From NCBI GenBank assembly GCA_028286785.1, contig JAQBQX010000005.1, forward strand, positions 1-35,069: a stretch of 35,069 nucleotides of DNA, written 5' to 3'. Shown one piece after another: positions 6,626-32,575 of this stretch; within the stretch, counting starts at the first letter, position 1, and the number at the start of each line of letters is the position of its first letter. This DNA is from Candidatus Adlerbacteria bacterium (GTDB lineage Bacteria > Patescibacteriota > Minisyncoccia > Phycocordibacterales > SBAW01). Position numbers and translations under genes: made by a program. The notes under the pieces were generated by a model, which saw nothing but the letters and a program-made list of their open reading frames with translations, was not told where the DNA came from and searched no databases.

Positions 6626-7894
6626 CTATAGGGTGGTGAAAAACGGTGCCAGTTGCTCGCGCTTGAGTGTAGTGTCGCTGCCAGTTGCCAGGTTGCGCAC
6701 AACAAAGGTGCCGGTCTGTGCCTCGGTGTCGCCAACTACGATCAAATAAGGGATCTTATGTTTAGAGGCCTGACGGATCTGGTCAGAGAGCTTTTTTTCG
6801 CCAAAGTCTATCGCCACAGTGACGCCTTGTTGGCGCAGCTCGTGGGCGAGCGCTTGCACTGTGGCAACATGCACCTCGGATGGCACTGCCAAGTAGACGC
6901 GTGTCGAGGGTAGGTATGGCGGGATGAGTCCGCGCACTTCCAAAAAGTGGCCGACGGTCACGTCGCCAAGTCCAAACCCGACAGCTGGTACTCGTTCGTC
7001 ATCAAAGAGCTTGGTGAGGTTGTCATACCGGCCGCCGCCGCACAGTGCGCGCTTGTTTTCAGGGTGGGTATCGTATACCTCGAACACGACGCCGGTGTAA
7101 TAGGCAAAGCCGCGAACAATCGATGGGTCAAACACGGCGTTATCGATACCGCTTTCGCTCAAAAGCGTCAGCACAGCCGCCACATCCTCCGGCGGGTTAT
7201 CTGCAGAGATCTTGCCGAGAGGCACACCGATTGCTTCCATGTCGGCCTCAAATTTTTCCTGGGGCATTTTGTCTTTGCGGTCCAGCAGTGCAAACATGGC
7301 GCGAGTATTCTCTTCGCTGAGCCCCAGTTCTGCTGCCAAGGCATTTAGGTAGCTGCGGCTGCCGAGTTTGATCACAAAATCGCTCTGGGACGCGCCAAAG
7401 GCCATAAACAATGCATGGGCAATTGAGATGATCTCGGCATCAGCTGCAAGCGAGTCCGATCCAAAGAGGTCGACATTGAGCTGCCAGTGCTCGCGTAGAC
7501 GGCCGCGCTGTGTTGCCTCGTACCGGAAGAGGTTCGGCGTCGAAAACAAGCGCAGAGGGAAGCCTAGGTCCCTTCGGCGGGCTGCCAGCATGCGTGCCAC
7601 GGTTGGTGTCATCTCGGGGCGCAATGTTACCTCGCGGCCGCCGCGGTCCATAAAGGTGTATGTCTGTTCGTTTATTATCTCTTCATTGTCGGCGCCTTTT
7701 CCGCGGTAGAGCTCTGCAGGTTCGAGGATGGATGCGTGGTATTCCTCGTACCCAAAACGTCGGCATACATCGCGCTCGGTCGCCAATATGTAGTTGAGCA
7801 GAGTTTGGTCTTCGGGGTAAAAATCGCGCACACCCTTGTACGGTTGGGTGCCGATTTTCTCTTTTTTGGCATTATTTTTGCCCTCAGACTCCAT
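6626..7894 (-). CDS. hisS: Histidine--tRNA ligase
   Basis: Class II motifs: LRPEMT, FRYEATQRGRLREHWQLNVDLFG, GGGRYD, and the anticodon-binding C-terminus. The track start (7936) is TTG; ATG 7894 is preferred, with TACAAT 7 nt upstream. Confidence 0.93.
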   Translation of the reverse strand: MESEGKNNAKKEKIGTQPYKGVRDFYPEDQTLLNYILATERDVCRRFGYEEYHASILEPAELYRGKGADNEEIINEQTYTFMDRGGREVTLRPEMTPTVARMLAARRRDLGFPLRLFSTPNLFRYEATQRGRLREHWQLNVDLFGSDSLAADAEIISIAHALFMAFGASQSDFVIKLGSRSYLNALAAELGLSEENTRAMFALLDRKDKMPQEKFEADMEAIGVPLGKISADNPPEDVAAVLTLLSESGIDNAVFDPSIVRGFAYYTGVVFEVYDTHPENKRALCGGGRYDNLTKLFDDERVPAVGFGLGDVTVGHFLEVRGLIPPYLPSTRVYLAVPSEVHVATVQALAHELRQQGVTVAIDFGEKKLSDQIRQASKHKIPYLIVVGDTEAQTGTFVVRNLATGSDTTLKREQLAPFFTTL

Positions 7895-13767: not shown

Positions 13768-14265
13768 TTATTTAAACTTGACCGGAATGTCGAGTTCTTT
13801 TTGATTTTCAGGAAGGCCAGAAGGGTTGTCGTTCATGAGTACCAATGTACCGGTGGTGCTTGTGGCTGGTGCCGTAAAGGTAAGTGTGCCCTTAAACGTT
13901 ACATATTCGGCGGTCATCCAGTCGCCTTGTGCTTCAACATGACCCTGCGCAATGACTTTGCCTACGCTGTCACGCAGCTCAACTGGCGCAGAGGCTTCAA
14001 AGTACCAGCCTCCGCGTGCCTTGCCTGTGATTGTAAGAGGGCTGTGAATAACTGTGCCTGGCAGCGGGCTCGAGACAGTAATAAGGTCGGGGAGCGATGC
14101 CTGAGGGGTTGTGGTGGGCGTTGATGTGGCTGGTGTCGTAATATCGGGCGTGCTTGTTGCCACAGTTGGGGCATGGGCTTGTTCAGGAGCAGGGATAACT
14201 ACAAGTGCAATAAGACCGATTACGATAATAGCAAACAGTACTATGGCGAGTGTGTAGCGATTCAT
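13768..14265 (-). CDS. Membrane-anchored Gmad2 Ig-like domain protein
   Basis: N-terminal TM helix, Thr/Pro-rich linker, then SPLPGTVIHSPLTITGKARGGWYFEASAPVELRD...GDWMTAEYVTFKGTLTF, typical of the Gmad2 domain. ATG 14265 chosen because TATAAT lies 6 nt upstream and this avoids overlap with the HAD gene. Confidence 0.8.
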   Translation of the reverse strand: MNRYTLAIVLFAIIVIGLIALVVIPAPEQAHAPTVATSTPDITTPATSTPTTTPQASLPDLITVSSPLPGTVIHSPLTITGKARGGWYFEASAPVELRDSVGKVIAQGHVEAQGDWMTAEYVTFKGTLTFTAPATSTTGTLVLMNDNPSGLPENQKELDIPVKFK

Positions 14266-14271
14266 GGCTCT

Positions 14272-14277
14272 ATTATA
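14272..14277 (-). promoter_or_regulatory. Consensus -10 TATAAT 6 nt upstream of ATG 14265
   Basis: On the - strand: TATAAT (14277..14272), agagcc, ATG 14265. Overlaps the TAA stop of the upstream HAD gene. Confidence 0.45.
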
Positions 14278-15019
14278 ACGCGATAATACGCTCAATGATA
14301 CCGGTGGTTTCTGCGATGCTGAAGACCTCGTGGGTGGCTACTCCGGTCGCTATAACGACAGAGTCGTTGCCGCCTTCTTCGAGCGCGTCTCCGATATACA
14401 GCATGTCGCTAACCGGTATCTGGGTGAGCTCCACGAGGCGCTTGATACCAAATGATTTGTCGATTCCTTTAGGGGTGACGTCTACCGAGGTGATGCCGCC
14501 CATTTCCACGGTGCATCCGGGTAGCGCCGCTGCAAGCGCGTCACGAAGCTGTTTGCGCACTGTGCCGTGCGCTTGGGCCCAGGCCTCTTTTTCGGCCAAA
14601 GGCGCTTGCTGTCCAAGTGCCGAAAAGGTGATCTGCGCACCCCGGTCCTCGATCTGTTCCCCCCAGAGCTGGGGCGGCATCTCAAACCCGATCTGGGGCA
14701 GGACCTTAGTTATTTGTTCTTTAATGTTGGCGCTTTCTGCAGCAGAGAACGAGTGGTCGTATTGTGGGTTCCACGTGCCGTTTTTATATACAAAACATTG
14801 TCCGCCGTTGACCGCAAACAAGTACAGGTGCTCCAGCGGCGCATCAGAAATAGACGGCAAGAGCTGTGTTTCAAACTGGCCAAAGGTAGCGCCAGACATG
14901 ATCGCGACCATGTGTTTCTGAAGGAGCTGACTCAAAAGGTCGCCCACTTCTGCGGATACGCGCTGTTTGCTTTCTGCCAAAGTGCCGTCCAGGTCAAAAA
15001 TGATAACTTTTGGCTTCAT
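14273..15019 (-). CDS. HAD-IIB hydrolase, eukaryotic-type phosphomannomutase-like
   Basis: DxDGT motif IIFDLDGTLAESKQRV. GGITSVDVTPKGIDKSFG and YIGDALEEGGND align by eye with the PMM motifs GGQISFDVFPxGWDK and FFGDKTxxGGND. Confidence 0.8.
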   Translation of the reverse strand: MKPKVIIFDLDGTLAESKQRVSAEVGDLLSQLLQKHMVAIMSGATFGQFETQLLPSISDAPLEHLYLFAVNGGQCFVYKNGTWNPQYDHSFSAAESANIKEQITKVLPQIGFEMPPQLWGEQIEDRGAQITFSALGQQAPLAEKEAWAQAHGTVRKQLRDALAAALPGCTVEMGGITSVDVTPKGIDKSFGIKRLVELTQIPVSDMLYIGDALEEGGNDSVVIATGVATHEVFSIAETTGIIERIIAL

Positions 15020-15042
15020 GTGTATATTCAGTTAAATAAAAT

Positions 15043-16965
15043 CTAAGTAAGGTTCTCCGGCAATAAAATCTTGAACAGTTTCTTCAGCGACATCTTTGCA
15101 ACTCCGAGCACGGTGTCCGCGCCGCCATAATATATAAATAAATTATCGCCGCGCAGCACCACCCCACAAGAAAACACCGCATTGCGCACGATGCCTATGC
15201 GCTCGTAAGGCAAGAGCGGTTCCAGAATGGTATCAACACTACGGGAAAGCACAATAGACGGATTCTGGAGGTCCAAAAGCACGGCGCCCAGGCGGTAGGT
15301 CGCCGTCTTGGAAACGCCGTGATAAATAAGGAGCCAGCCCTTGTCGGTTTTAATAGGGGGTGCTGCTATGCCGATTTTGACGCTGTCCCAGCAGCCGGGG
15401 CGCGGACCCATGATTTCGATGCAGCGCGAGAGGCGCATTTTGGTAAAGTCCAAGGTGTCTAGGAAGTCGGCGCACAGCTGCGGGTCGATGCGGTGCAGCA
15501 GCATGTATTGCCCTGCGATTTTCTCTGGCATGAGGCAAGTGTCTTTGTCGTTGACGTTGTCAGGCGTGGTCAAGACAGGCATAGACCACTTGTTCCAGCG
15601 TTTGTTGAGGAAGTCGTCAACGGAAATGCTGGTCAGCGCAACACGGGTGCTATCGACACCATTGTACGCGGTGTAGGCCATGTACAGAGTGTCATCAATT
15701 TGGGTGATGCGAGGGTCTTCGCAGCCGGAATTGCCGGTCGGGCTGCCTTTTTTCAGCTCAAAGTCGGCGCGCGGTATGTACATCGGCTCAGGATCGCGGT
15801 CGATTATCTTGACGCCGTTTTTGGTGGCTGCGTATCCGATGACCGATGTGTTGTCGTCGCCCATGGCACGGTACAAAATGTGGATCTTGCCGCCGAGGTC
15901 TATCGCTGCAGCATTGAACACCGCGTTTTTTTCCCATGGATGTTCAGGAATGGGGAGCAAGATCGGGTTTTCTTTGGCGCGCACGACAAGTTCGATGCGG
16001 CGCTCGGGTATGAGTGCGGCCAGAAGGTCTGGCAAGTTCAGCGACGCTTTGGCGCAGATAGTGTCGGCGCCTCCGTAATAGATATCGAGGCGGTTTTTCT
16101 CGAGCAATGCGCCGGATGGGAACACAATGTTGGGTACGACACCGTACTGCTCGTAATTGGCCTCTGGGACCATCATAGGACCCTTGGTGGCGCCTACAAT
16201 CGTGTGTGGGTCAGTGAGTCCCAGCAACATCGCCTCGATGCCAAACACGCGCTTGTCCCCATCGAAGTATCTCTGGATGTAGGAATAGATAAGGAGCCAG
16301 CCGTCTTTGGTTTTAATAGGTGCCGCGCCTACTTCGACGTGGTCTTCAGGGAAGCGCAGCGGGTTGATGATGTGACTGTCGATTTCCGAGTGCCATTTTT
16401 CCCAGAACTTGATATCCCACAGGTCTTCGAGCTTGTCGCATTGCGCGATGCACATGTGCGACGGCGGTTCGTCGGTATGCGCACTAAAAATAACCGTGAT
16501 CTTGCCGTTGATGCGCTCGGGGAACAGCGTCATGGCCTTGGCATTAAACGGGGTCACCAGGTGCTTTTCTTGTATCGTTTCGAGGTCGTCAGAAATTGCC
16601 AGAGCAACTTTGATATTGCCTGGGCCATATGGAAAGCCGCCGAGCGCGGTATAAAAAATGATGTACTGGCCTTCAAAAAAAGTGACACGCGGATCTTCGC
16701 AGCCGTATTTTTCCCATTCTTCCTCTGGGGTGATGAACTGTCTGCGGTTTTGGAAGTGTTCTCCATCCAGCGACAATGCTTTGCCGATCGAGGAGACTCC
16801 GCCGGGCGACATCAGTGCGTCGGGGCGCGACAGTGCACGGTACAGAAGGTGAGTAACAGCGCCGCGTTTGATAGGCGAGCCGTTGAACGTGCCGCGCGAC
16901 TCCCATTGCCGGTCGGAAACCGGTGAGATAAGCGGATTGTGTTCACTGCGGCGTATTACATACAT
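15043..16965 (-). CDS. Tandem GH130 (beta-mannoside phosphorylase/mannosidase family) fusion protein
   Basis: Two complete modules, about aa 1-325 and 326-640. Each carries NP(L/I)xxP..W(E), LYRA, GCEDPR(V/I)T, GW(L)LIY and YYGGADT. Confidence 0.85.
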   Translation of the reverse strand: MYVIRRSEHNPLISPVSDRQWESRGTFNGSPIKRGAVTHLLYRALSRPDALMSPGGVSSIGKALSLDGEHFQNRRQFITPEEEWEKYGCEDPRVTFFEGQYIIFYTALGGFPYGPGNIKVALAISDDLETIQEKHLVTPFNAKAMTLFPERINGKITVIFSAHTDEPPSHMCIAQCDKLEDLWDIKFWEKWHSEIDSHIINPLRFPEDHVEVGAAPIKTKDGWLLIYSYIQRYFDGDKRVFGIEAMLLGLTDPHTIVGATKGPMMVPEANYEQYGVVPNIVFPSGALLEKNRLDIYYGGADTICAKASLNLPDLLAALIPERRIELVVRAKENPILLPIPEHPWEKNAVFNAAAIDLGGKIHILYRAMGDDNTSVIGYAATKNGVKIIDRDPEPMYIPRADFELKKGSPTGNSGCEDPRITQIDDTLYMAYTAYNGVDSTRVALTSISVDDFLNKRWNKWSMPVLTTPDNVNDKDTCLMPEKIAGQYMLLHRIDPQLCADFLDTLDFTKMRLSRCIEIMGPRPGCWDSVKIGIAAPPIKTDKGWLLIYHGVSKTATYRLGAVLLDLQNPSIVLSRSVDTILEPLLPYERIGIVRNAVFSCGVVLRGDNLFIYYGGADTVLGVAKMSLKKLFKILLPENLT

Positions 16966-16972
16966 ACTTGTT

Positions 16973-18106
16973 TTAGTATACCTCGGGAGCGAGTTCGACC
17001 TCGCGGTGTGTCATCAGTTTGCGGACAAATCGGCGCATGTTTGTCTTGGCAACAGCGATAATCTTGTCCCCACCGCCGTAGTACACAAGCAAGTCGTCGC
17101 CCATGATAACCGCACCGCACGCGTATACCACGCCTGGTTTGCCGTCGTTCTCGTACCATTTTTCCGGCTCGAGTATCGGGTTATCAGAGCGAAAGAGAAT
17201 ATGCTCCGGATGCTCAAGGTCCAGAAGCATGGCGCCCACTTTGTATTTGTTAGGGTCGTGCATATCCATGGCGTGGTACAGAAGCAACCATCCAAACGGC
17301 GTCTTGATAGGTGGTGGTCCCGCACCGCGCACCCAACTGTCCCAATTGTCTTGGCGGCCTGCTTTTTTGTATTCGCTTTCGATAAACGTATTGCCGTCAA
17401 ACTGGTCGAGCGAATCGATATACGCGATATGTATCTCTGGCGAGACGCTATGCAACAGCGCATATTTGCCGTGGATTTTCTCTGGGAAAAAGACCCAATT
17501 TTTATTGATTTCGTTCGGCTTAGACATCAGAGCTGGACGCTTCCAAGTAAAGTTATGCGCCAATAGCTCGGGGAGCGGCATCGAGGTTACTGCCATACGC
17601 ACAAAGCCCCAGCCGTCGAAGGCGACAAAGGTCATAACGGCAGTGTTGCCGATGATGACCAAACGAGGATCTTCGGCGCCGCCCCATCCGCCGCCGGATG
17701 GGTACACAACGGTGTTGTACGACAATGGCCCCCAACGTTTGTCCGGGTGAGGGAGACCGATCTGTGATGCAGAAAGCGTATTTCCGAAACCGCGCACTGG
17801 TGTATACACCGGCTCGGCTAATCGTTCGTCAAAATGTATGCCGTCGAGGCTCGAGGCGTATCCGATGCGCGATATACCGTCGTGTCCCATGGCGCGGTAG
17901 AGCATGTGCACGCGACCTCCTGCATACACTGCAGCCGGGTTAAAGACCGCCTCGCTTTCCCAGGGGTGGGAGGCAACAGGGGACAAGATCGGGTTGTTGT
18001 CGCCGCGGCTCAAGCGCAATGGGCGATTGACCTCTCGTATCCAATACCAGATAAGAAGGAGAAAGATAATCCCCAACACAATACCGATCACAATCCCAAG
18101 TATCAT
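16973..18106 (-). CDS. GH130 family protein with N-terminal transmembrane anchor
   Basis: TM helix MILGIVIGIVLGIIFLLLIWYWI followed by RxxxRxxRxxR. Then NPILSP..HPWE..AVFNPAA, MLYRAMG, GAEDPRL, GWLLLYH, YYGGGD. Confidence 0.85.
   Translation of the reverse strand: MILGIVIGIVLGIIFLLLIWYWIREVNRPLRLSRGDNNPILSPVASHPWESEAVFNPAAVYAGGRVHMLYRAMGHDGISRIGYASSLDGIHFDERLAEPVYTPVRGFGNTLSASQIGLPHPDKRWGPLSYNTVVYPSGGGWGGAEDPRLVIIGNTAVMTFVAFDGWGFVRMAVTSMPLPELLAHNFTWKRPALMSKPNEINKNWVFFPEKIHGKYALLHSVSPEIHIAYIDSLDQFDGNTFIESEYKKAGRQDNWDSWVRGAGPPPIKTPFGWLLLYHAMDMHDPNKYKVGAMLLDLEHPEHILFRSDNPILEPEKWYENDGKPGVVYACGAVIMGDDLLVYYGGGDKIIAVAKTNMRRFVRKLMTHREVELAPEVY
16975..16980 (-). promoter_or_regulatory. TATACT 9 nt upstream of ATG 16965 (internal to the operon)
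   Basis: On the - strand: TATACT (16980..16975), aaaacaagt, ATG 16965. The hexamer overlaps the last codons and TAA of the upstream GH130 gene. Confidence 0.35.
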
Positions 18107-18465
18107 CAGGCAGAAGAAGCGCGGCCGTAGCGGTCGTCATAACGAATAATGTCATGTTCGTCGAACTCGCCAGTCGCTATTTCAAGAAATTGGATGCCGT
18201 CGGGACCTGCGGTGACGCGATGTTTGGTTCCTCGAGGTACGGAAAACGTGCTGCCTGGCTCGGTTGGAATCGACATGTCATTGAGCTCTACCGTTCCTGC
18301 TCCGGAAAGTACTTTCCAAAACTCATCGCGCTTGGTGTGGGACTGCAGGCTGAGTGCTTCGTTCGCGGTAACGGTGATTATTTTGACTGTCGCGTTTTCG
18401 TTGTGGGTAAAGCGTTCAAAATTGCCCCACGGGCGCTGTTCAGTATAGATATTCGATTGATCCAT
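18106..18465 (-). CDS. Stand-alone type II phosphomannose isomerase cupin domain protein
   Basis: RPWGNFERF...VKIITV...ALSLQSHTKRDEFWKVLSGAGTV...PRGTKHRV...EHDIIRYDDRYGR matches the C-terminal PMI cupin of ManC/AlgA-type enzymes. Its stop overlaps the next start by 1 nt (TGATG, 18108..18104). Confidence 0.85.
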   Translation of the reverse strand: MDQSNIYTEQRPWGNFERFTHNENATVKIITVTANEALSLQSHTKRDEFWKVLSGAGTVELNDMSIPTEPGSTFSVPRGTKHRVTAGPDGIQFLEIATGEFDEHDIIRYDDRYGRASSA

Positions 18466-18470: not shown

Positions 18471-18476
18471 AGTATA
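18471..18476 (-). promoter_or_regulatory. -10 box TATACT 5 nt upstream of ATG 18465
   Basis: On the - strand: TATACT (18476..18471), ggggt, ATG 18465. No SD. Lies directly after the U-tract of the upstream terminator. Confidence 0.5.
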
Positions 18477-18480
18477 GAAC

Positions 18481-18537
18481 ATAAAAATGCCGAGGGGCCG
18501 CTTCCCCTGTATAAGTAGTGGGTAGCGGCCCCTCGGC
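18481..18537 (-). terminator. Long-stem rho-independent terminator of the two-component operon
   Basis: Perfect 14-bp stem GCCGAGGGGCCGCT (18489-18502) / AGCGGCCCCTCGGC (18524-18537), plus 3 more bp after one mismatch. ATTTTTAT follows on the - strand. Confidence 0.75.
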
Positions 18538-18686: not shown

Positions 18687-19760
18687 TCATCTCTTCATAT
18701 CTAAACCCACGCGTGCTGCAGAAGGTTCCACACTATTGTGAGAAAAGTCGAGATTGATTTCGCTGCGCTTGTTTGCCTGGTTTGCGCTGTGGTGGCCAGG
18801 CATAGCGCCAGAGGGCAGCGCAACAGTAACTGTCGTGCCTTTACGCTTGGCGCTCTCGATGCGGATCTTGCCATGATGGATGCGCACAATGTCGTTAACG
18901 ATAGTGAGTCCAATGCCTGAGCCGGTCTTCTTTACGTTGCGCACACGCGAGGTATCTGCGCGATAAAACGGCTCAAAGATGTGCTGCAGGTCTTCCTCGG
19001 CAATGCCGATGCCGGTGTCTGCTACGGTAAGGATGATAGAGCCGTGGTAATCGGGCCCAATGTCGATAGACACGGTGCCGCCATTGTTTTTTGGCGTATA
19101 GGAAAGCGCATTTTTGATGAGGTTGGTTATCACTTGCTCCAAGGCTGTCGGGTTTCCTTGCACTGTGGCGTAAGAATCCTTTTTGACCGACATGCGGATG
19201 CCGCGCTCGCGAGCAAGAGCCATATGCTGTTCGACCACTTTGTCCAAAATAGGGCGCAGGTCGACATTGCCGAGCTTGATGCGCTCGGGTCGGGTCAGAG
19301 TGTCCAACGACAGCAAGTTGTTGATGATTTCGGAGATTCGGTCGAGCTCCACGACGATCTCATTGCACGTCTCTCGCACGTCAGAGCGAATCGCATCGTC
19401 CATCAAGAGCACCTCGGTCGAGGTCTTGATGGTGGAAAGCGGTGTTCGCAGTTCGTGGGCGACGTTCGAGATGAATATTTTCTGGTATCGCAAGCTGTTG
19501 CGGGTGGGGCGCAGCGTGTACTGCGCCATGATGAGCCCGAATATGGTCGCCAGCACGACAATTGACCCGAACGCAATCCATTGCGCGTTGGGATAACGCA
19601 ACGCCCAGAGCAGTGCCCCGATACACAGGGTCACCAGGCCAATCTGGAGCGTGACGATGTTAACGGTAGTCCTGAAAAACAGGTCAGACGTGTACCTCTC
19701 CCGCCAAGCGGTAGCCGACACCACGAACCGTTTCAAATAGTTGCTCGCTGCGGTCATCAT
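18687..19760 (-). CDS. Sensor histidine kinase, two-TM intramembrane-sensing type
   Basis: H-box SNVAHELRTPLS, N-box LIKNALSYTP, G-boxes DTGIGI and GSGIGL. Two TM helices are separated by only RYPNAQ. No HAMP or PAS domain. The only ATGs (19760, 19757) overlap the regulator gene by 74-77 nt. Confidence 0.88.
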   Translation of the reverse strand: MMTAASNYLKRFVVSATAWRERYTSDLFFRTTVNIVTLQIGLVTLCIGALLWALRYPNAQWIAFGSIVVLATIFGLIMAQYTLRPTRNSLRYQKIFISNVAHELRTPLSTIKTSTEVLLMDDAIRSDVRETCNEIVVELDRISEIINNLLSLDTLTRPERIKLGNVDLRPILDKVVEQHMALARERGIRMSVKKDSYATVQGNPTALEQVITNLIKNALSYTPKNNGGTVSIDIGPDYHGSIILTVADTGIGIAEEDLQHIFEPFYRADTSRVRNVKKTGSGIGLTIVNDIVRIHHGKIRIESAKRKGTTVTVALPSGAMPGHHSANQANKRSEINLDFSHNSVEPSAARVGLDMKR

Positions 19761-20373
19761 GTTGCAATTTTTTACGGAGATTTTTCATATGCACATCCAA
19801 TACGTTGCTCCACGAAAGGGAATTGAAGTCCCATACATGGTCAAACAGCTTCTCGCGCGACAGCACGGTGCCAGGCTCGCGCATAAAGCATTCCAACAGA
19901 GCGAACTCTTTCAGTGTCAGAGGAACTTCTGTACCCTCTTGGCGGACAACACGGGTTGATGTGTCCATTTCCAAATCGCCCACCTTGAGTATGACGGGCT
20001 GGGCGAGACTGGGTCGGCGTAGCACCGAGTTGATGCGCGCCAAAAGCTCTTCAAACGAGAAGGGTTTAACAATGTAGTCATCAGCCCCTTTGTTGAGCAG
20101 GTCTACCTTGTGTTCAGTTTCGTTGCGGGCGGTCAGGATGATGATCGGGGTGGTAACGTTTTCCTGACGCACTGACTCGGTGATAGTGGCGCCGTCTATA
20201 CCTGGGAGCATGAGGTCCAAGATAATAAGGTCGTATTCGTTGCGGTACAGCAAGATACGGTTGCGCGCTTTTTCGCTGTCGGACAGCCAATCTACGGCGA
20301 ATCCTTTGACCTCAAGGCCTTTTTTAAGGGCGCGGGCCAGCTTTTCTTCGTCCTCAACAATGAGAATGTGCAT
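19684..20373 (-). CDS. OmpR/PhoB-family response regulator
   Basis: Receiver domain (ILIVEDEE, DLIILDLMLPGIDG, KPF) plus winged-helix output domain (LTLKEFALLE, RGVGYRL). Confidence 0.93.
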   Translation of the reverse strand: MHILIVEDEEKLARALKKGLEVKGFAVDWLSDSEKARNRILLYRNEYDLIILDLMLPGIDGATITESVRQENVTTPIIILTARNETEHKVDLLNKGADDYIVKPFSFEELLARINSVLRRPSLAQPVILKVGDLEMDTSTRVVRQEGTEVPLTLKEFALLECFMREPGTVLSREKLFDHVWDFNSLSWSNVLDVHMKNLRKKLQHDDRSEQLFETVRGVGYRLAGEVHV

Positions 20374-20544: not shown

Positions 20545-21186
20545 TTATTTCTCCGAGGTAAACAGAGCGTATTCTTCAGGAAAGAGCCAGATAAGCAAAT
20601 GGTAGATGCTATAGGTGATAAAGAAGGCGGACAGAACGTCTATCGAGTAGTGGAGGTGTCCCATGAGCACAATAACGCCAAAAAAGACTGATGCTGTAAG
20701 ATAGAAATATCGCAGAAACGGCTCTTTCCAAAAGGCCAAGGCGCCTAAAAAGGGTAGCCCGGTGTGGCCCGAGAAAAAGCGGTCGCCTCCAAAAAACAGC
20801 TTGCTTACGGCTGGGCCAAACTCACCAGAGGTGTAGGGCATAAAAGGCGCAATGTGGGTTAGCGACACAAAGATCGAGCGGATGAAGAAAAAGAGCGCGA
20901 CACCATAGAGCATCATAGGAAGGCGCTTGGGCTGCATGAGGCAGACAAACACAGTGATGATTGCTACAAGGAGGGTGCCGTAGACAAAGAGGGCGTCAAC
21001 ATTAAATATAGGGATATTTGAAAGGACAAGGTCCGTCACGGGGTTGCTGGCCCGGTCGGTGGCGTACTCGATTGCGTAAGTGTTAAGCACGAGGCTCAAC
21101 ATGAATAATCCTGCCGAAAGGACTAACGCGCGGATGTACGTATAGTCTGATAGGTGTAGCTTGTAGCGCTCAAGAACGGCTCGCAT
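20545..21186 (-). CDS. PAP2-superfamily (PAP2_C / sphingomyelin-synthase-like) membrane protein
   Basis: Six predicted TM helices. Lipid-phosphatase motifs C2 FFSGHTG and C3 GHLHYSIDV. Confidence 0.75.
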   Translation of the reverse strand: MRAVLERYKLHLSDYTYIRALVLSAGLFMLSLVLNTYAIEYATDRASNPVTDLVLSNIPIFNVDALFVYGTLLVAIITVFVCLMQPKRLPMMLYGVALFFFIRSIFVSLTHIAPFMPYTSGEFGPAVSKLFFGGDRFFSGHTGLPFLGALAFWKEPFLRYFYLTASVFFGVIVLMGHLHYSIDVLSAFFITYSIYHLLIWLFPEEYALFTSEK

Positions 21187-21195
21187 GTATACAAT

Positions 21196-21205
21196 AGTAT
21201 ATACT
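21196..21205. promoter_or_regulatory. 10-bp palindrome AGTATATACT forming back-to-back TATACT -10 boxes
   Basis: On the + strand, TATACT 21200-21205, gctttct, ATG 21213. On the - strand, TATACT 21201..21196, attgtatac, ATG 21186. The whole divergent intergenic region is only 26 nt. Confidence 0.5.
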
Positions 21206-21212
21206 GCTTTCT

Positions 21213-21824
21213 ATGAGTCTGGACACCATCATCCACCTGATAGAAACCTACAAGTACCTCATCCTTTTCCCGATAGCGGCGTTCGAGGGGCCAGTCACGG
21301 GCTTTATTGTGGGCATGCTCATCGCATTTGGCTACCTAAATCCGTATGTTTCGTACCTTGTTTTGGTAATGGGCGACCTTGTTCCCGACGCGGTCTATTA
21401 CTACATGGGCCGGTTCGGAGAAGCAAAGAGCATCATCCCGCGCTACTTTGCCAAGGTGGGGATAACCGAAGAGCACTTTGGGGCGGTGCGTTCACTATGG
21501 AAAAAGCATCCGGGTAAGACCATGTTTTTTAGCAAGTTGGCATACGGGCTTTCGACCCCGTTCCTTATTTCTGCTGGTCTTGTCGGTATGAAGCCGGGCA
21601 AATTCTTTCTGTATGCCCTGCCGGTCACCTTTGCACAATATGCCATTTTGATGGCGCTGGGTTACCACTTCAGCAGTTCGTTTGGAACTGTTGCGAATAT
21701 CTTTGCGAATATCCAATACGTCATTGGCGGCCTGGTTCTGGTGTTTATCGGGTACTACTTCCTTGCAAAATATATGCGCAAGCGCCTCTTGGCTGCAGAA
21801 AAGGAGGCAGAGGCCAAAGAGTAG
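21213..21824 (+). CDS. DedA/VTT-family membrane protein
   Basis: LILFPIAAFEGPVTGFIVG...VLVMGDLVPDAVYYYMGRFG, plus multiple TM helices. Confidence 0.85.
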   Translation: MSLDTIIHLIETYKYLILFPIAAFEGPVTGFIVGMLIAFGYLNPYVSYLVLVMGDLVPDAVYYYMGRFGEAKSIIPRYFAKVGITEEHFGAVRSLWKKHPGKTMFFSKLAYGLSTPFLISAGLVGMKPGKFFLYALPVTFAQYAILMALGYHFSSSFGTVANIFANIQYVIGGLVLVFIGYYFLAKYMRKRLLAAEKEAEAKE

Positions 21825-21826
21825 GG

Positions 21827-23008
21827 TTATTTTTTGTTCTCAATCGCGCTGCGGTAAATTTCTTCCCATTTTTGTGCGATTTTTTCGGGTGTGAAGCGCT
21901 GCACAAACGCTTGCGCGGCGGTACCCATATCATGACGCAGCGTATCTTCGCGTAACAGCTTAGTTAGTTTGTCGGCAAGCGCCATATGGTCCCCAGGCTC
22001 TACCAAAAAGCCCGCCTCGGGTGGCGTATAGTCCGGTAAGCCGCGCGCACGCGCGCATACGGCTGGCATGCCCGTTGCGTATGCTTGCATCAAGGAAATC
22101 GATTGGCTGTCGGAGGTCGACATAAATGCGAATACATCAGCCGCTTTGTATGTCTTGGCAAGGACGTCGCGCTCTAAAAAGCCCACAAACCGCATCGAGT
22201 TTGCCACACCGAGTCCGTCTGCCAGTTCGCGCAGATACGGCTCTGCGGCGCCATGGCCGGTCGCAATAAGGGTGGCGGTCGGGAATTTCTTTTTGAGTTC
22301 CGCAAAGCCGCGCACAACTACATCAACGCATTTTTCAATGCCAAGGCGCCCCACATACAGCACGACTGGGCCATCGAGCTTGAATTCTTGCTTGAGCAAT
22401 GCTTTTTCTTCGGCGCTGGGCGGCATAAAGGTCGCAAGCTCAACCGGGTTGGCGACCGCCGTGCCCGGCTTCTTGAATCCAACTTCGCGCATGCGCTCAA
22501 TAAGTGCCTGGTACGGCGCAGTCACAAAATCGCAGTGGTTGTAGTAGTGTGCGTCCCAATAGCGCATAAAAGCACGCGTGCCAAACGGAAAAAAGTCCTC
22601 GATCGCTGTATGGTTGGTGCCTATCAGCGGTACCCCAAATTTTTTAGCAGCCCGCTTTGCCTCAAAACCAACGCCATATGCGCTTTGCGTGTGGATGATG
22701 TCGGGCTTAAACTCTTTCAAAAAAGCAAAGCTCGCACCTGTCGGAAAAGCAAAGCGTGATTGTCCGGTTGGAGACAGTGGAAGCCGGACCGATCGCAATC
22801 GCACAACGGGCATGCCGTCGATATTTTCTTGCTCCTCAGCACTTGGAAAACGCTGCTTATTTTTATCATAATCTGGCTTGCTGTAGCGGGGTCCGACATA
22901 GCACACAGTGTGTCCGCGTTTGGTCAGTTCGCGGCCGGTGATAACAATAGTGTCCGCAATGCCCGAAAGCTCGGGGTACAAGTTATCGGAGAAAAAGGCG
23001 ATACGCAT
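21827..23008 (-). CDS. GT4-family (GT-B) glycosyltransferase
   Basis: N-terminal MRIAFFSDNLYPELSGIADTI. C-terminal Glycos_transf_1-like region (VLYVGRLGIEK...MQAYATGMPAV). Confidence 0.9.
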   Translation of the reverse strand: MRIAFFSDNLYPELSGIADTIVITGRELTKRGHTVCYVGPRYSKPDYDKNKQRFPSAEEQENIDGMPVVRLRSVRLPLSPTGQSRFAFPTGASFAFLKEFKPDIIHTQSAYGVGFEAKRAAKKFGVPLIGTNHTAIEDFFPFGTRAFMRYWDAHYYNHCDFVTAPYQALIERMREVGFKKPGTAVANPVELATFMPPSAEEKALLKQEFKLDGPVVLYVGRLGIEKCVDVVVRGFAELKKKFPTATLIATGHGAAEPYLRELADGLGVANSMRFVGFLERDVLAKTYKAADVFAFMSTSDSQSISLMQAYATGMPAVCARARGLPDYTPPEAGFLVEPGDHMALADKLTKLLREDTLRHDMGTAAQAFVQRFTPEKIAQKWEEIYRSAIENKK

Positions 23009-23020
23009 ATTAATACCGTA

Positions 23021-23809
23021 TTATTGCACGAAGTTTTTGATCTCGACCGCAAGCCTTTCTCGGTTGTTTAAGACTATGTTGTGGTTGGCGCCGTCGATCG
23101 CGACAAACTCTTCGCCTGAAAGTTTTTCAACAAGTGATATGGCATGTTCAAGTTCGACAAAGGTATCTTGGGTGCCGTGGATGATGAGGACCGGCATAGG
23201 AAGCTCTGTCCAGTCGCGGGAATAGTCTTTCGCAAACGCTGCCCTAAATACGTATATATATGAGCGCAGTCCCATGTTTGAAATGTCTTTGTATATACGG
23301 CGGATGCTAAAGTCCGGAGTCGGTATCGAAATAGTGCTGTAGTTGGTTCGACGGTCGCGATGCAAACGAGGAATAAGGGATGCGACCATGTTTCCCATGC
23401 GGACAAATAGTCGGGTCCAGGCAAAGTTTTGTATACCATGAATAGGGGCAAGCAATATTTTGTGGCTGAGCATGTGCGGGTATGTGCGGGCGAACTCCAT
23501 CGCGACAAGCGTGCCGAACGAGTGGCTGACCAAAACGCACTGGCTGATATGCAAATGCTCCAGCAGCGCCTTCAAATCTTCGAGGTGTTCGTCAAGCGCG
23601 TATCCGCTGCGCGATGGGCGAATAGAAAGCCCATGTCCGCGCAGGTCGTAGGTCACCATGTTGTACGTATTGCCAAATAGTTTTTCGTATCCTTCCCACG
23701 CCGAAAGGCTCCCTGAAAGTCCGTGCACAAACACAATAGTGCGCAACTCTGGCCGCATGTTGGTGTGTTGGTAGGCAATCCCGCGGCTTTTCAAAAAATC
23801 CTCTGTCAT
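23021..23809 (-). CDS. Alpha/beta-fold hydrolase
   Basis: Oxyanion VFVHGLSGS, nucleophile elbow VSHSFGT, C-terminal GANHNI. 12-nt gap to the GT4 gene. Confidence 0.88.
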   Translation of the reverse strand: MTEDFLKSRGIAYQHTNMRPELRTIVFVHGLSGSLSAWEGYEKLFGNTYNMVTYDLRGHGLSIRPSRSGYALDEHLEDLKALLEHLHISQCVLVSHSFGTLVAMEFARTYPHMLSHKILLAPIHGIQNFAWTRLFVRMGNMVASLIPRLHRDRRTNYSTISIPTPDFSIRRIYKDISNMGLRSYIYVFRAAFAKDYSRDWTELPMPVLIIHGTQDTFVELEHAISLVEKLSGEEFVAIDGANHNIVLNNRERLAVEIKNFVQ

Positions 23810-23817
23810 GTGGCTCC

Positions 23818-23823
23818 AGTATA
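23818..23823 (-). promoter_or_regulatory. -10 box TATACT 8 nt upstream of ATG 23809
   Basis: On the - strand: TATACT (23823..23818), ggagccac, ATG 23809. Confidence 0.45.
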
Positions 23824-23843
23824 CATGTGCTACGCTATGGGGA

Positions 23844-24584
23844 ATGAAAATCAGTTTTGTGGTCCCGGCTTATAACGAAGAAAAGGTGCTGGGGAAATGC
23901 CTCGAAGCGATTATGGCCGAGCTTGGCCGCCATCCGGAATTAACGCTCGGGCAAGACGCAGAAGTGGTTGTGGTTAACAACGCCTCGACCGACAAGACTG
24001 GCGAGGTTGCTCGGAGTTTTGCGGGCGTACAAGTGATAGACGAACCGCGCAAGGGTTTGGTGCAGGCGCGCAAGTCGGGCTTTGACTCAACGACGGGTGA
24101 GCTTGTTGCTAATGTCGACTCGGACACCATAGTGCCCGAAGGATGGCTCAATACTGTTTTACATAATTTCGAGCATGACCCAAAACTGGTCGCGCTTTCT
24201 GGCCCGTACATATATTACGACTTGAGCGCGTTTTCTCGCGGTCTTGTGCACCTGTTTTATTTTTTTGGATATATCCTGGGGTTGTTGCGACTGATTGCTA
24301 TGCTGCAGGGCGGCAACTTTGTGATCAAACGCGATGCGTGGGCACAGGTCGGCGGGTTTGATACAAATATTGCCTTTTATGGCGAGGACACCGACGTCGC
24401 CAAGCGCCTGCAGCGTGTTGGCCGGGTACGCTGGACCTGGAGCCTGCCCGCGCTCACATCCGGCCGCCGGATTGCACAAGAGGGTATTGTCGTCATGAGT
24501 TTGCGCTATACCATCAACAACTTGTGGATGTACTGGTGCAACAAACCTTTCTCCAAGCAGTACAAAGACATACGACCCAACTAA
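23844..24584 (+). CDS. GT2-family glycosyltransferase
   Basis: ISFVVPAYNEEKVL, NNASTDKT, and DSD (DxD) in VANVDSDTIV. ATG 23844 preferred over the track start at 23808. TACGCT (23831-23836) lies 7 nt upstream. Confidence 0.88.
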   Translation: MKISFVVPAYNEEKVLGKCLEAIMAELGRHPELTLGQDAEVVVVNNASTDKTGEVARSFAGVQVIDEPRKGLVQARKSGFDSTTGELVANVDSDTIVPEGWLNTVLHNFEHDPKLVALSGPYIYYDLSAFSRGLVHLFYFFGYILGLLRLIAMLQGGNFVIKRDAWAQVGGFDTNIAFYGEDTDVAKRLQRVGRVRWTWSLPALTSGRRIAQEGIVVMSLRYTINNLWMYWCNKPFSKQYKDIRPN

Positions 24585-30638: not shown

Positions 30639-32096
30639 ATGGTTCGTACTCTCAAAAAATTACAACAGAAACTCGAATACTTGGACAAATACACATTTGC
30701 TATTGTTGATACCGAAACAAGCGGCACCAGTCCCAACAATAACCAGATCATCGAGATCGGCATTTTGCGTGTCGAGCAGGGGAAGGTCGTGCGCACCTAC
30801 AAAACGCTCATCAAACCTGCGCGCATGATCCCCAAGGTAATCACCTCGATCACCGGCATCCAGCCCGAGGACTTGGAAGACGCCCCCGCGTTCGAGGAAG
30901 TGGCGCTCGATATCCGCGAGATGCTCGAAGGCGCCGTGATGGTGGCGCACAATGCCCGGTTTGACTACAGCTTTATCAAAAACGAGTTCAAGCGCCTCGG
31001 TATACCGTACAACGCCAAGACACTTTGTACGGTCAAATTGTCGCGCGAATTGTTTCCCCAATATTCGCACCATAACCTCGACGCGGTTATTGAGGCTCAT
31101 GGCTTGCGCTGCATCAACCGCCATCGCGCCTATGACGATGCAGATGCGCTGTGGCAGTTTCTGCAGGTAGTGGAGAAGAAGATCGAGAAAGAAAAGATGG
31201 TTGCGACAATTGAGAAATTGCTCGGCAATCACACGCTGCCCACAGGTCTTTCTCGCGAGATGCTCCGCGGGCTCCCGAACACTCCGGGCGTATACATTTT
31301 TTATGGCGCTGACAACGAGGTGCTGTATGTCGGCAAAAGCGTGAACATCCGCACTCGTGTCCTGTCTCATTTTTCTGGCGACCATCAAACTGCAAAAGAA
31401 CTGCGGATGACCGGGGAGGTTGCCCACGTCGGATTCGAAGAAACCACCGGTGAGCTTTCGGCACTATTTTTAGAGTCCAAACTCATCAAAGAGCTGATAC
31501 CGGTATACAACAGGGCTTTGCGCAAAGCCAAACAGCTTGCAGTGATGACCCGCACAGAAACCGAGCGCGGTTATAGCAGTGTCAGTGTGTCATACGCAAG
31601 CTACGTGGACCCAACAGAAGGCGAGGTGTTGGGGATATTCCGCACCAAGCGGCAGGCAAAGGATTTCCTGGACAGTGTGGTGCGCGACCATGCGCTGTGC
31701 CCCAAACTATTGGGTGTCGAACAGGGGACTGGCGCGTGCTTCCAGCAACAGCTGGGTCACTGCCAGGGCGCATGTGTCGGCGCCGAGCGTGTACACGACT
31801 ACAATGCGCGCTTTAGTGGCGTGTTCGCAGCGCGCAAAATTAAAACCTGGCCGTACAAGGGTCCCGTGGTCGTTAAGGAAGATGCCGAGGCCGAAGAGGG
31901 CACTGCGTACGTTATAGACAACTGGCGTTTGGTTGCTAAAATCAATTATACGAACGAGTCGCACGACGAGGAAGCTGTGGGGGAAAGCGAGTTCGATTAC
32001 GACGCATATAAGATTTTGATCAAGCACTTTATGAAGCGCGAAGTGCAAAGGAGTATTGTGCCATACAAACCAATCAGTTATACTTTTTCCTTGTGA
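30639..32096 (+). CDS. DnaQ-like 3'-5' exonuclease fused to a GIY-YIG (UvrC N-terminal half / Cho-like) nuclease
   Basis: Exo motifs FAIVDTETSG, AHNARFDYSF, HRAYDDADA. GIY-YIG motif PGVYIFYG..VLYVGKSVNIRTRVLSHF...LESKLIKELIPVYN. UvrC-type Cys-rich segment ACFQQQLGHCQGACVG. No UVR or C-terminal endonuclease domains. Confidence 0.88.
   Translation: MVRTLKKLQQKLEYLDKYTFAIVDTETSGTSPNNNQIIEIGILRVEQGKVVRTYKTLIKPARMIPKVITSITGIQPEDLEDAPAFEEVALDIREMLEGAVMVAHNARFDYSFIKNEFKRLGIPYNAKTLCTVKLSRELFPQYSHHNLDAVIEAHGLRCINRHRAYDDADALWQFLQVVEKKIEKEKMVATIEKLLGNHTLPTGLSREMLRGLPNTPGVYIFYGADNEVLYVGKSVNIRTRVLSHFSGDHQTAKELRMTGEVAHVGFEETTGELSALFLESKLIKELIPVYNRALRKAKQLAVMTRTETERGYSSVSVSYASYVDPTEGEVLGIFRTKRQAKDFLDSVVRDHALCPKLLGVEQGTGACFQQQLGHCQGACVGAERVHDYNARFSGVFAARKIKTWPYKGPVVVKEDAEAEEGTAYVIDNWRLVAKINYTNESHDEEAVGESEFDYDAYKILIKHFMKREVQRSIVPYKPISYTFSL
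32079..32084 (+). promoter_or_regulatory. TATACT 8 nt upstream of the GTG start of the SET gene (inside the preceding CDS)
   Basis: TATACT 32079-32084, ttttcctt, GTG 32093. Confidence 0.35.
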
Positions 32097-32575
32097 CCCA
32101 GAAAAATAATATCGCAACCACTGTGGCAAAAAAAACAGCTACAAAAAAAATTACAAGAAAGAAATTTGTCCCCGGCGATTTTGGCCTGAAAGTTAAACGC
32201 TCTACCGCTGGGCTCGGGTTGTTTGCAGGCACTGCCATCCCCAAAGGCGCGTGCGTTATCGAATATGTCGGCCGAACGCTGGAACCTGGCGAGGATCTGA
32301 CGAGCAATAGCCTCTATTTATTTGAGATAACTAAAACCAAGACAATCGACGGCACAGCACGCACTAACACAGCGCGGTACATCAACCATTCGTGCAAGCC
32401 CAACTGCGAAATCGAGTATAACAAGGGTCGCGTGTTTATCTTTGCGCTGCGCAATATCAAACCGGGAGAAGAGCTCAACTACGACTACGAAGAAGAATAT
32501 TTTAACGAGTACATCAAACCCAAGGGCTGCCGCTGCCGCAAATGTTCGCCGCAGCTATACGCAGAAGCCAAATAA
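32093..32575 (+). CDS. SET-domain protein-lysine methyltransferase with post-SET Cys motif
   Basis: GLGLFA, IEYVG, ARYINHSCKPN, ELNYDY, and post-SET CRCRKC. Lys-rich N-terminus (KKTATKKITRKK). The GTG start overlaps the upstream TGA (GTGA, 32093-32096). Confidence 0.9.
   Translation: MTQKNNIATTVAKKTATKKITRKKFVPGDFGLKVKRSTAGLGLFAGTAIPKGACVIEYVGRTLEPGEDLTSNSLYLFEITKTKTIDGTARTNTARYINHSCKPNCEIEYNKGRVFIFALRNIKPGEELNYDYEEEYFNEYIKPKGCRCRKCSPQLYAEAK

Follow-up and report, generated by a model that had tools for sequence, protein, structure and literature searches.

Related mannoside systems

The characterised enzymes nearest in sequence and fold to the proteins considered here are Teth514_1788, a 1,2-beta-oligomannan phosphorylase, and Teth514_1789, a beta-1,2-mannobiose phosphorylase, both from Thermoanaerobacter sp. 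X-514 and both in glycoside hydrolase subfamily GH130_6. Their gene cluster includes an ABC transporter, a GH5 enzyme, a mannose-1-phosphate guanylyltransferase and a GT4 glycosyltransferase, with mannose 1-phosphate (Man-1-P) passing to GDP-mannose (PMC4264767). In Leishmania, an intracellular beta-1,2-mannan known as mannogen is cycled through related beta-propeller enzymes (PMC10913872, PMC4264767), the paralogous five-bladed GT108 proteins MTP1-7, alongside a phosphomannomutase (PMM) and a phosphomannose isomerase (PMI). The subject of this report is a four-gene cluster at 14273..18465, minus strand, of a 35,069-nucleotide stretch of DNA from a Candidatus Adlerbacteria bacterium (contig JAQBQX010000005.1 of assembly GCA_028286785.1, positions 1 to 35,069; the whole stretch is called the window), which encodes a cupin, a transmembrane (TM)-anchored GH130 protein, a double-GH130 fusion and a PMM-type protein of the HAD superfamily. 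The cluster has its enzymes in common with the Thermoanaerobacter system and its logic in common with Leishmania mannogen. It is read here, tentatively and at somewhat less than an even chance, as a cytoplasmic module that would reversibly link fructose 6-phosphate (Fru-6-P) with a beta-1,2-mannan, a self-made, mannogen-like reserve.

The features of the GH130 family that distinguish its catalytic types are well described. Beta-1,2 phosphorylases are recognised by a proton-donor Asp, an Arg/His pair that binds phosphate (UhgbMP R168/H231, equivalent to Uhgb_MS R202/H261) and the residues R, E, K and D at subsite +1 (PMC7660257), whereas GH130 hydrolases have carboxylates in place of the basic residues (BT3780 E227/E268; PMC4599007). 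Among the MTPs of Leishmania, some are phosphorylases and some lack the phosphate-site Arg, which is a His in the strict transferases MTP1/2 (PMC10913872, PMC12814180), and the residues of the cluster's modules show a similar split.

Like Teth514_1788/1789, the GH130 proteins of the cluster have no signal peptide and are encoded by adjacent paralogues. Unlike in Thermoanaerobacter, however, two modules are fused, the phosphate site is non-canonical in two of the three, one of the enzymes is anchored in the membrane, and a PMI and a PMM stand in for the ABC transporter, GH5, guanylyltransferase and GT4. The routes of Leishmania and of the cluster would both join glycolysis by way of Man-1-P, mannose 6-phosphate (Man-6-P) and Fru-6-P. 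The cluster differs from Leishmania in that its enzymes belong to GH130 and not GT108, its phosphate ligands are replaced by Ser/Thr and carboxylates and not by His, no GDP-mannose source is linked, and the polymer is a proposed one.

The four genes and their parts are as follows.

18106..18465, minus strand: cupin, 119 aa, PF01050
16973..18106, minus strand: single GH130 protein (the 'A' enzyme), 377 aa, PF04041
18038..18103, minus strand: TM helix of the anchored GH130, aa 2-23, with the first ~23 residues of the protein hydrophobic
16976..18019, minus strand: catalytic domain of the anchored GH130, aa 30-377, PF04041
15043..16965, minus strand: double-GH130 fusion, 640 aa, PF04041 in two stretches
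16006..16965, minus strand: N-terminal GH130 module of the fusion, aa 1-320, sugar site intact and phosphate site absent
15046..15990, minus strand: C-terminal GH130 module of the fusion, aa 326-640, canonical phosphorylase signature
14273..15019, minus strand: HAD-IIB protein, 248 aa, PF03332 and TIGR01484

The cupin stop codon and the start codon of the anchored GH130 gene overlap by 1 nt (TGATG at 18108..18104), and gaps of 7 nt (16966-16972) and 23 nt (15020-15042) precede the fusion and the HAD gene, respectively. An initial annotation, made from the letters alone, had described this layout and proposed that the set could carry beta-mannosides to Fru-6-P; its genes, coordinates, overlap, gaps and part identities were all reproduced by the positions of the open reading frames and by annotation of the window with Pfam and NCBIfam profiles, and its parts list and the logic that links Man-1-P, Man-6-P and Fru-6-P hold.

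Three GH130 modules, one canonical

PF04041 scores 151 bits on the anchored enzyme and 303 bits over the two stretches of the fusion. In sequence, all three modules are nearest to Teth514_1788/1789 (E 1e-37 to 5e-61); in fold, the AF2 model of the fusion (pLDDT 90.7, pTM 0.79) gives target-normalised Foldseek TM-scores of 0.87-0.91 to 9FJ8/7FIP, in agreement with the five-bladed beta-propeller of the GH130 family. Residue equivalences were fixed by counting along the alignment to Uhgb_MS, in which E136, K184, R202, P206, E207, N211 and R242 match the published numbering (PMC12814180), and a residue census was taken over 78 fusions and 36 single 'A' genes. In this census, 78/78 N-terminal and C-terminal modules and 36/36 A modules have the proton-donor Asp together with the +1/-1 residues N, R, E, K and D. 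Together these observations support the assignment of all three modules to the beta-1,2-mannoside clade. On the NCBIfam equivalog for beta-1,2-mannobiose phosphorylase (NF052550, cut-off 450 bits), the fusion scores 432.8 bits with its two modules summed and the anchored enzyme 221.7 bits, both below the cut-off. The GH130_4 beta-1,2-mannobiose phosphorylases Lin0857 and Uhgb_MS, which also have weak GDP-mannose transferase activity, share the E136/K184 determinants and a cytoplasmic location (PMC12814180), but their similarity to the modules is lower (E 1e-27 to 1e-44) and, unlike the anchored enzyme, in which the equivalents of R202 and R242 are missing, they have a complete phosphate site. 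Membership in GT108, the family of the Leishmania MTPs and of the bacterial AsGT, was considered and rejected: PDB sequence searches returned no GT108 chain at E <= 1e-3, and the match to the GT108 fold is distant (Foldseek E ~1e-9, target-normalised TM-score ~0.63, 14-17% identity).

The C-terminal module of the fusion has 7FIP (E 5e-61) and 9FJ8 (E 6e-59) as its closest structures and retains N351, R366, E416-D417, K474, H491-R492, K530, H549, Y557-R558 and D617. Its phosphate ligands are fully conserved (R492, H549 and the Tyr 78/78 each, and Lys or Arg at K530 in 78/78), and among the three modules in the window the Arg/His phosphate pair is found only here. The module shares the catalytic, phosphate-site and +1 residues of the Teth514 enzymes, including, as in Teth514_1789, a Lys at the position of Uhgb_MS R242. 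By its residues it fits every published phosphorylase criterion (the 'GP beta-1,2' pattern, PMC7660257) and, resembling Teth514_1789 as it does, would be a canonical phosphorylase.

The N-terminal module, whose closest structure is 9FJ8 (E 1e-41), combines an intact sugar site (N28, R43, E90-D91, K143 and D301, each in 78/78) with the loss of all four phosphate ligands, the Arg/His pair among them. The replacements are themselves conserved: S161 (Thr in 65 and Ser in 11 of the 78), H209 (His in 66, Gln in 10), S228 (Ser in 73) and F241 (Phe in 75). Around them lie the conserved motifs T164-D165-x-P-P in loop L2, D208-[HQ]-x-E211-x-G and F-G-I-E244-A, which place three invariant carboxylates, D165, E211 (two residues after the lost ligand) and E244, close to the lost ligands. 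The GH130_3 beta-1,2-mannosidases BT3780 and BACOVA_03624 show the same combination of a kept Asp, Glu-Asp pair and beta-1,2 Lys with lost basic ligands and gained carboxylates (PMC4599007). However, the carboxylates of the N-terminal module lie at R242+2, Y269+3 and in loop L2 and not in the columns of BT3780 E227/E268, which, matched by residue spacing and not by direct alignment, hold Ser/Thr and His/Gln. Moreover, the module lacks the signal peptide usual in GH130_3 and is much nearer in sequence to the GH130_6 phosphorylases. Because Thr/Ser, His/Gln, Ser and Phe replace its phosphate ligands, the module is, on its residues, neither a canonical phosphorylase nor a canonical hydrolase, although it obeys the rule that carboxylates replace basic residues. 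The parts that D165, E211 and E244 of this module, and R260 of the anchored enzyme (below), would play in the rebuilt pockets are suggested by strand register.

The anchored 'A' enzyme begins with MILGIVIGIVLGIIFLLLIWYWIREVNRPLRLSR, an uncharged start and a hydrophobic helix followed by four Arg (RxxRxxRxxR). Since the N-terminus is uncharged and the Arg residues follow the helix, the positive-inside rule predicts an N-out, C-in topology with the catalytic domain in the cytoplasm. Its closest structures are again 9FJ8 and 7FIP, and its sugar site is kept (N56, R71, E145-D146, K202 and D347). In its phosphate site, the Arg of the Arg/His pair is replaced by S220 and the Arg or Lys at the R242 position by V259, with an Arg, R260, one residue later, while the His of the pair (H278) and the Tyr (Y288) are retained. 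In 36 orthologues, the A gene occurs in two exactly covarying forms, a canonical one with HR and RK[IV]G and a second with HS/HN and x-R-G or x-R-S. The gene in the window is of the second form, having lost both basic ligands and shifted the Arg by one. Removal of a single phosphate contact in the R202A variant lowers phosphorylase activity 16-fold (PMC12814180), beta-1,2 GH130 phosphorylases have weak GDP-mannose transferase activity (PMC12814180), and strict GT108 transferases have His at the corresponding Arg (PMC10913872). From these precedents and the lost ligands, we infer that the anchored enzyme is a doubtful phosphorylase and a candidate transferase. The three phosphorylases foreseen in the initial annotation are therefore reduced to one that has the Arg/His pair (R492/H549), the N-terminal module having no phosphate ligand and the anchored enzyme lacking the Arg of every known GH130 phosphorylase.

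The N-terminus of the A gene varies by lineage and may be a TM anchor, a long poly-Lys tail or a degenerate GH130-like module of ~280 aa without the EDPR motif (loci L009, L010, L017, L025, L029-L032, L035, L036, L038, L039, L041 and L042), and both GH130 genes tend to a layout of a variant module plus a canonical module. The anchored enzyme of the window also has an insertion of ~40 aa (aa 102-142) between the first blades and the EDPR motif, at the position of the lid loop that limits the products of Lin0857 and Uhgb_MS to di- and trisaccharides.

The mutase and the isomerase

The HAD protein matches the eukaryotic PMM family PF03332 at 46.9 bits over positions 3-219 of 221, as well as the HAD-IIB family TIGR01484. 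A single-sequence search places the Lactococcus lactis alpha-phosphoglucomutase (alpha-PGM) PgmH (4BND) first, at E 4e-34, followed by PMMs at ~1e-14. A profile built from 15 orthologues likewise gives 220 bits to 4BND and 75-105 bits to PMMs, over their full length, against at most 37 bits, and only partial matches, to Cof-type phosphatases. The protein shares with PgmH and with PMM1/PMM2 a common HAD core, a C2B-type cap, the DxD motif and the basic residues for the second phosphate; the Arg at PMM2 R134 is a Gln both here and in PgmH. Its invariant residues are D9 and D11 (DxD), K18, R126, K144, R155, K188 and D211, of which K18, R126, K144 and K188 correspond to PMM2 R21, R123, R141 and K189, the residues that hold the bisphosphate (PMC4263888). 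By profile, then, the protein groups with mutases (alpha-PGM first, PMMs second) and not with Cof-type phosphatases, as the initial annotation had left to be settled. Its description as PMM-like stands as regards the full-length PF03332 match but not as regards the closest characterised relative, which is an alpha-PGM.

The family is widespread, and its genomic partners bear on the choice of substrate. A beta-1,2-type GH130 gene lies directly downstream of the HAD gene, within ~250 nt, in 11 loci outside the Candidate Phyla Radiation (CPR), from Bacteroidota, Acidobacteriota and Planctomycetota (L088, L095, L098, L101, L108, L110, L116, L121, L126, L131 and L164). These GH130 proteins form a distinct subfamily (GVLNPA...FPRLV...GCEDPR...NKDAS...HRPL) with the full beta-1,2 phosphorylase signature. 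A gene for a ManC-like guanylyltransferase is found directly upstream of the HAD gene in two loci, one in Novosphingobium and one in a CPR genome, and ~1.3 kb upstream of it in Aeromicrobium. Because the GH130 and the ManC-like partners both make or use Man-1-P, these associations support a phosphomannomutase that would interconvert Man-1-P and Man-6-P, despite the alpha-PGM relative. The protein is predicted from its association with mannoside phosphorylases and a PMI-type cupin to act on mannose phosphates.

The cupin matches PF01050 (MannoseP_isomer) at 65.3 bits, against a cut-off of 23.6, and is 34% identical to residues 371-477 of Escherichia coli ManC (E 3e-18). It shares RPWG, LSxQxH..R.E.W, P.G..H and DRYGR with the C-terminal domain of ManC and type II PMI. 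However, it is a stand-alone protein of 119 aa without the guanylyltransferase domain of the bifunctional enzymes, and TIGR01479, the profile for the mannose-1-phosphate guanylyltransferase/PMI architecture (GMP/PMI, cut-off 373 bits), aligns only over profile positions 360-467, at 66.8 bits. The conserved motifs in 21 orthologues are RPWG, Q41-x-H43, R46, E48, H82 and D111-x-Y-G-R115; P12-W13-G14, Q41, R46, E48 and H82 are invariant, and H43 and R11 are each present in 20 of the 21. As Q41, H43 and E48 align with the HxH...E metal motif of the small cupins 7ZVM/7ZVY, the protein has a Gln/His/Glu/His site, which is the ligand set of type I PMI. No relative of proven function was found in the PDB, where a single-sequence search gave only a weak match to D-lyxose isomerase and a profile search gave small cupins of unclear function. 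The retention of the type II motifs and of the metal site agrees with the PMI-like nature proposed in the initial annotation, and the protein may be a Man-6-P/Fru-6-P isomerase.

Conservation of the cluster

Relatives of the fusion number more than 6,000. The 120 best matches are 638-664 aa long and 72-79% identical, and those with a name are called Paceibacterota, Kaiserbacteria, Adlerbacteria or Parcubacteria, which places the window in Patescibacteria (CPR), near Paceibacteria. In 54 of 60 loci with the fusion, a single GH130 gene lies next to it. When neighbouring families within 8 kb were clustered in 37 non-redundant fusion loci, the cupin (18 loci) and the HAD protein (15) emerged as the sole strongly recurrent neighbours of the GH130 pair, followed by histidyl-tRNA synthetase (HisRS; 8). 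Among the loci retrieved, 26 contain all four parts in at least three gene orders. With C for the cupin, G for the single GH130, F for the fusion and H for the HAD protein, these are C-G-F-H (14 exact and 3 with wider gaps), H-C-G-F (8) and a divergent F'-G'/H-C (1). A linkage that survives rearrangement in this way argues for a shared function of the four genes. A single-sequence scan for relatives of the cupin gave five loci, all from CPR genomes and all with the full cluster, and the fusion is as conserved between genomes as ribonucleotide reductase (75% each, L004). The combination, which had been thought unusual, is common within Patescibacteria.

The GH130 pair also occurs without the cupin and HAD genes in Microgenomates and in a few genomes outside the CPR, including that of the cultured Chryseotalea sanaruensis. 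One complete Microgenomates genome has been reported to encode five glycoside hydrolase genes, two of them GH130 (PMC7143001). Beyond a single passing mention of GH130 in CPR bacteria, the searchable literature contained no description of this cluster, and nothing was found there on GDP-mannose or storage polymers in these bacteria.

Several further associations were noted. A gene for a cytidylyltransferase-like protein of 160-180 aa stands directly beside the HAD or cupin gene in ~10 CPR loci (L008, at 7033-7581, L011, L012, L014, L015, L017, L018, L023, L167 and L143). It best matches RfaE domain II, a D-glycero-beta-D-manno-heptose-1-phosphate adenylyltransferase, at 69 bits, below the cut-off, and may be the sugar-1-phosphate nucleotidyltransferase that is otherwise missing. 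The window does not have this gene, and one of its carrier loci, L143, is without GH130. Five loci of different lineages (L008, L011, L019, L032 and L037), that of cultured Chryseotalea among them, have a gene for a P-type cation ATPase (E1-E2, Cation_ATPase_N/C) no more than 6 kb from the GH130 pair. Other CPR genomes have stand-alone GH130 proteins of other types (L065, L077, L068 and L127): in one type the +1 Lys is an Arg and L2 carries a very long insertion, and its gene once follows directly after a cupin gene (L077); the protein of L068 shows a loss of the phosphate site like that of the N-terminal module; and L127 has a trio of HAD, cupin and single GH130.

Direction and physiological role

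From homology, residue patterns, topology signals and gene linkage, we infer enzymatic activities, a direction of flux and the existence of a polymer, of which the core biochemical assignment seems fairly secure. The cupin would interconvert Fru-6-P and Man-6-P, and the HAD mutase Man-6-P and alpha-Man-1-P, which the C-terminal module of the fusion would exchange with the polymer by reversible phosphorolysis, (Man)n + Pi <-> (Man)n-1 + alpha-Man-1-P. Both remaining modules would bind the same beta-1,2-mannoside at subsites -1/+1 with a rebuilt phosphate pocket. Of these, the N-terminal module is most likely a phosphate-independent hydrolase or trimming enzyme, or else a chain-binding partner, and the A enzyme, at the inner membrane face, most likely works poorly as a phosphorylase, its donor or leaving group having changed, and is possibly an initiating transferase. 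A mannogen-like reserve or protective beta-1,2-mannan could thus grow from Man-1-P in times of ample hexose phosphate and be fed back into glycolysis with phosphate, no ATP being spent.

That the glycan is self-made is suggested mainly by what does not travel with the genes. The annotation shows no sugar transporter, kinase or GDP-mannose pyrophosphorylase gene in the window, the initial annotation having reported none in the cluster; no ABC ATPase occurs within 8 kb in the 37 fusion loci; the N-terminal domain of ManC has no match in the window or in 85 loci retrieved with the fusion; no signal peptide is present on the cluster proteins; and no locus has a polysaccharide-utilisation context. 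The polytopic neighbours that do occur are the P-type ATPase, histidine kinases and single cases of YfhO, acyltransferase-3, RND and Nramp proteins, with no sugar importer among them. The GH130 pair of Chryseotalea lies beside genes for phosphoenolpyruvate synthase, a CDP-alcohol phosphatidyltransferase, a P-type ATPase and Usp, and the HAD-GH130 pair of Mucilaginibacter follows a class I fructose-bisphosphate aldolase gene, in both cases without SusC/D. Because neither a sugar importer nor a protein exporter travels with the cluster, a self-made glycan is the most likely substrate; an endogenous substrate handled in the cytoplasm, and partly at the membrane, is also favoured by the contexts outside polysaccharide-utilisation loci, by conservation like that of ribonucleotide reductase and by the retention of the GH130 genes. 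The initial annotation had left open both uptake with catabolism and reverse-phosphorolytic synthesis at the membrane; the same absences favour the second, as a self-made beta-mannan at the cytoplasmic face, over the first.

A broader proposal, which is possible but clearly less likely than not, is that Patescibacteria, together with some Bacteroidota, Acidobacteriota and Planctomycetota that carry the HAD-GH130 pair, keep a bacterial 'mannogen' made and mobilised from hexose phosphates without nucleotide sugars or ATP. Three catalytic types would have arisen within their GH130 set: a canonical phosphorylase, an initiating or transferase variant that is tethered to the membrane and has a displaced Arg, and a phosphate-independent module lined with carboxylates, a type not yet described in GH130.

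The idea of a self-made reserve has several points against it. The closest characterised relative of the HAD protein is, as noted, an alpha-PGM, and the L. lactis enzyme reportedly does not use mannose phosphates; the homologous cupin domain of enterobacterial ManC has no known PMI activity. In Microgenomates and most carriers outside the CPR, no cupin or HAD gene occurs within 10 kb of the GH130 pair, which makes the four-gene unit a Parcubacteria-type feature. No beta-1,2-mannan has been reported in any bacterium with these genes, and no obvious primer or initiating glycosyltransferase was identified. Free mannose arising from mannobiose would need a kinase, and the cluster has none. The lipid and glycan genes upstream of the cluster in the closest relatives (PAP2_C, DedA/VTT, an Mgs-like GT4 and a GT2), and a YfhO-type gene by the fusion in one case, fit an envelope product equally well. 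Host-dwelling CPR bacteria could, in addition, obtain mannosides through unlinked transporters.

Catabolic salvage, in which environmental or host beta-1,2-mannooligosaccharides would be phosphorolysed in the cytoplasm, Man-1-P would reach glycolysis through PMM and PMI without ATP and the non-canonical modules would be helper mannosidases, is a rather unlikely explanation. It draws on the nearest characterised enzymes, Teth514_1788/1789, a long-chain and short-chain pair comparable to the GH130 gene pair here, which were proposed to degrade imported 1,2-beta-oligomannan (PMC4264767). The PMI and PMM of the operon would complete the route to Fru-6-P, and CPR bacteria are scavengers with few biosynthetic pathways. 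However, unlike in the Thermoanaerobacter cluster, none of the 37 loci has a linked transporter or extracellular enzyme, and the Bacteroidota genes lie outside any SusC/D locus. Beta-1,2-mannosides are also rare in nature, with no environmental source found even for Thermoanaerobacter (PMC4264767), whereas the genes are among the most conserved of these tiny genomes. Salvage, moreover, leaves the membrane tethering of a cytoplasmic degradative enzyme unexplained.

Synthesis of an envelope glycan is unlikely as well. Here Fru-6-P would be converted into Man-1-P as the direct donor for the anchored GH130 and the fusion, and a beta-mannan or beta-mannosylated glycolipid would be made at the inner face and then flipped to the surface. 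That a TM helix or a poly-Lys tail tethers the A enzyme at the cytoplasmic face is consistent with such a product, but in many lineages the A enzyme has neither and carries a pseudo-GH130 domain. Genes for an Mgs-like GT4 glycolipid synthase, a GT2, DedA/VTT, PAP2_C and BacA proteins lie just upstream in the closest relatives, the PAP2_C gene abutting the cupin gene in L003, L004 and L026. These envelope genes occur, however, in at most 5 of the 37 loci, and as they are confined to close relatives, shared ancestry may explain them. A YfhO-family glycosyltransferase gene follows the fusion by 5 nt in one locus (L033, 2294-4795), an acyltransferase-3 gene abuts it in another (L038, 3969-5006) and a two-component system of the intramembrane-sensing type is repeatedly nearby; a flippase or exporter, on the other hand, is not consistently linked. 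Beta-1,2 GH130 phosphorylases do make long chains in vitro (PMC4264767, PMC12814180), but the phosphorolytic equilibrium would make an exported end-product costly without a pulling step.

It is quite improbable that the pathway is wrong at one or both ends, with the HAD protein an alpha-PGM or phosphatase, the cupin not a PMI and both mere neighbours in hexose-phosphate metabolism. In favour of this view, the HAD profile scores 220 bits to the L. lactis alpha-PGM and only 75-105 bits to PMMs, the cupin reaches a mere 65 bits on PF01050 and has no close solved relative of proven function, and all four proteins score below the NCBIfam equivalog cut-offs. Against it, the cupin and HAD genes stay linked to GH130 through three rearrangements, members of this HAD family are also partnered by GH130 in three other phyla and by ManC-like genes, and the -1 subsite residues of all modules are of the mannoside-enzyme type.

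Genomic surroundings

Two further features of the minus strand flank the four genes.

18471..18537, minus strand: upstream boundary of the transcription unit, with a terminator-like hairpin at 18537..18489 and a TATACT box at 18476..18471
13768..14265/14295, minus strand: Gmad2 protein, 165-175 aa, PF10648 at 62 bits

The hairpin has a 13-bp GC-rich stem and a U-run (-41.4 kcal/mol, z = -7.8 against shuffles) and separates the upstream histidine kinase and response regulator genes from the cupin, and the TATACT box stands between it and the cupin ATG. Because no structure comparable to this hairpin interrupts the minus strand between 18465 and 14273, a single four-gene transcript running from 18465 to 14273 is plausible, judging from spacing alone. 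No Rfam match to a riboswitch or other known RNA was obtained anywhere in the window.

The response regulator and histidine kinase directly upstream (18687..20373, minus strand) may be the regulator of the cluster. The kinase has two TM segments and an outer loop of only ~7 aa, as in the intramembrane-sensing type, and the response regulator is 83% identical at the equivalent position in locus L001. In L020 a kinase gene lies inside the cluster, and in L033 and L034 regulator and kinase genes follow the fusion.

Further upstream, 20545..24584 encodes a PAP2_C membrane protein, a DedA/VTT protein, a GT4, an alpha/beta hydrolase and a GT2. The GT4 matches monoglucosyl-diacylglycerol synthase best, over its full length, and the gene set is syntenic with the cluster in the closest relatives only. 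The GT2, GT4, DedA and PAP2_C genes were not accepted as parts of the system, being present in at most 5 of the 37 loci, all from close relatives.

The Gmad2 protein has an N-terminal TM helix and a Thr/Pro-rich linker. The start of its gene is ambiguous, since it could be a TTG at 14295, within the end of the HAD gene, or an ATG at 14265, which leaves a 7-nt gap. It was rejected as a part of the system, being absent from the cluster in every other locus examined. The remainder of the window holds the housekeeping genes for DnaG, sigma-70, HisRS, class I ribonucleotide reductase and ClpP, along with envelope genes; a SET-domain protein of 160 aa (PF00856, 82 bits) is encoded at 32093..32575, plus strand.

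Significance

The cluster contains two natural and strongly conserved rebuilds of the GH130 phosphate pocket beside a canonical copy in one operon, which makes it a system for asking what sets phosphorylase, hydrolase or transferase chemistry in the GH130 fold, and it points to catalysts for beta-mannosides, which are difficult synthetic targets. For the widespread bacterial family of PgmH-like HAD proteins, the annotation would change to a probable phosphomannomutase acting in partnership with mannoside phosphorylases. With Chryseotalea sanaruensis (the GH130 pair) and a Mucilaginibacter strain (the HAD-GH130 pair), cultured carriers exist in which the idea can be tested directly.

CPR bacteria have tiny genomes and no known carbon reserve. 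If the proposal is true, a self-contained and ATP-neutral route between glycolysis and a beta-1,2-mannan would supply them with a storage or stress-buffering polymer, and it would explain why two GH130 genes survive under genome reduction.

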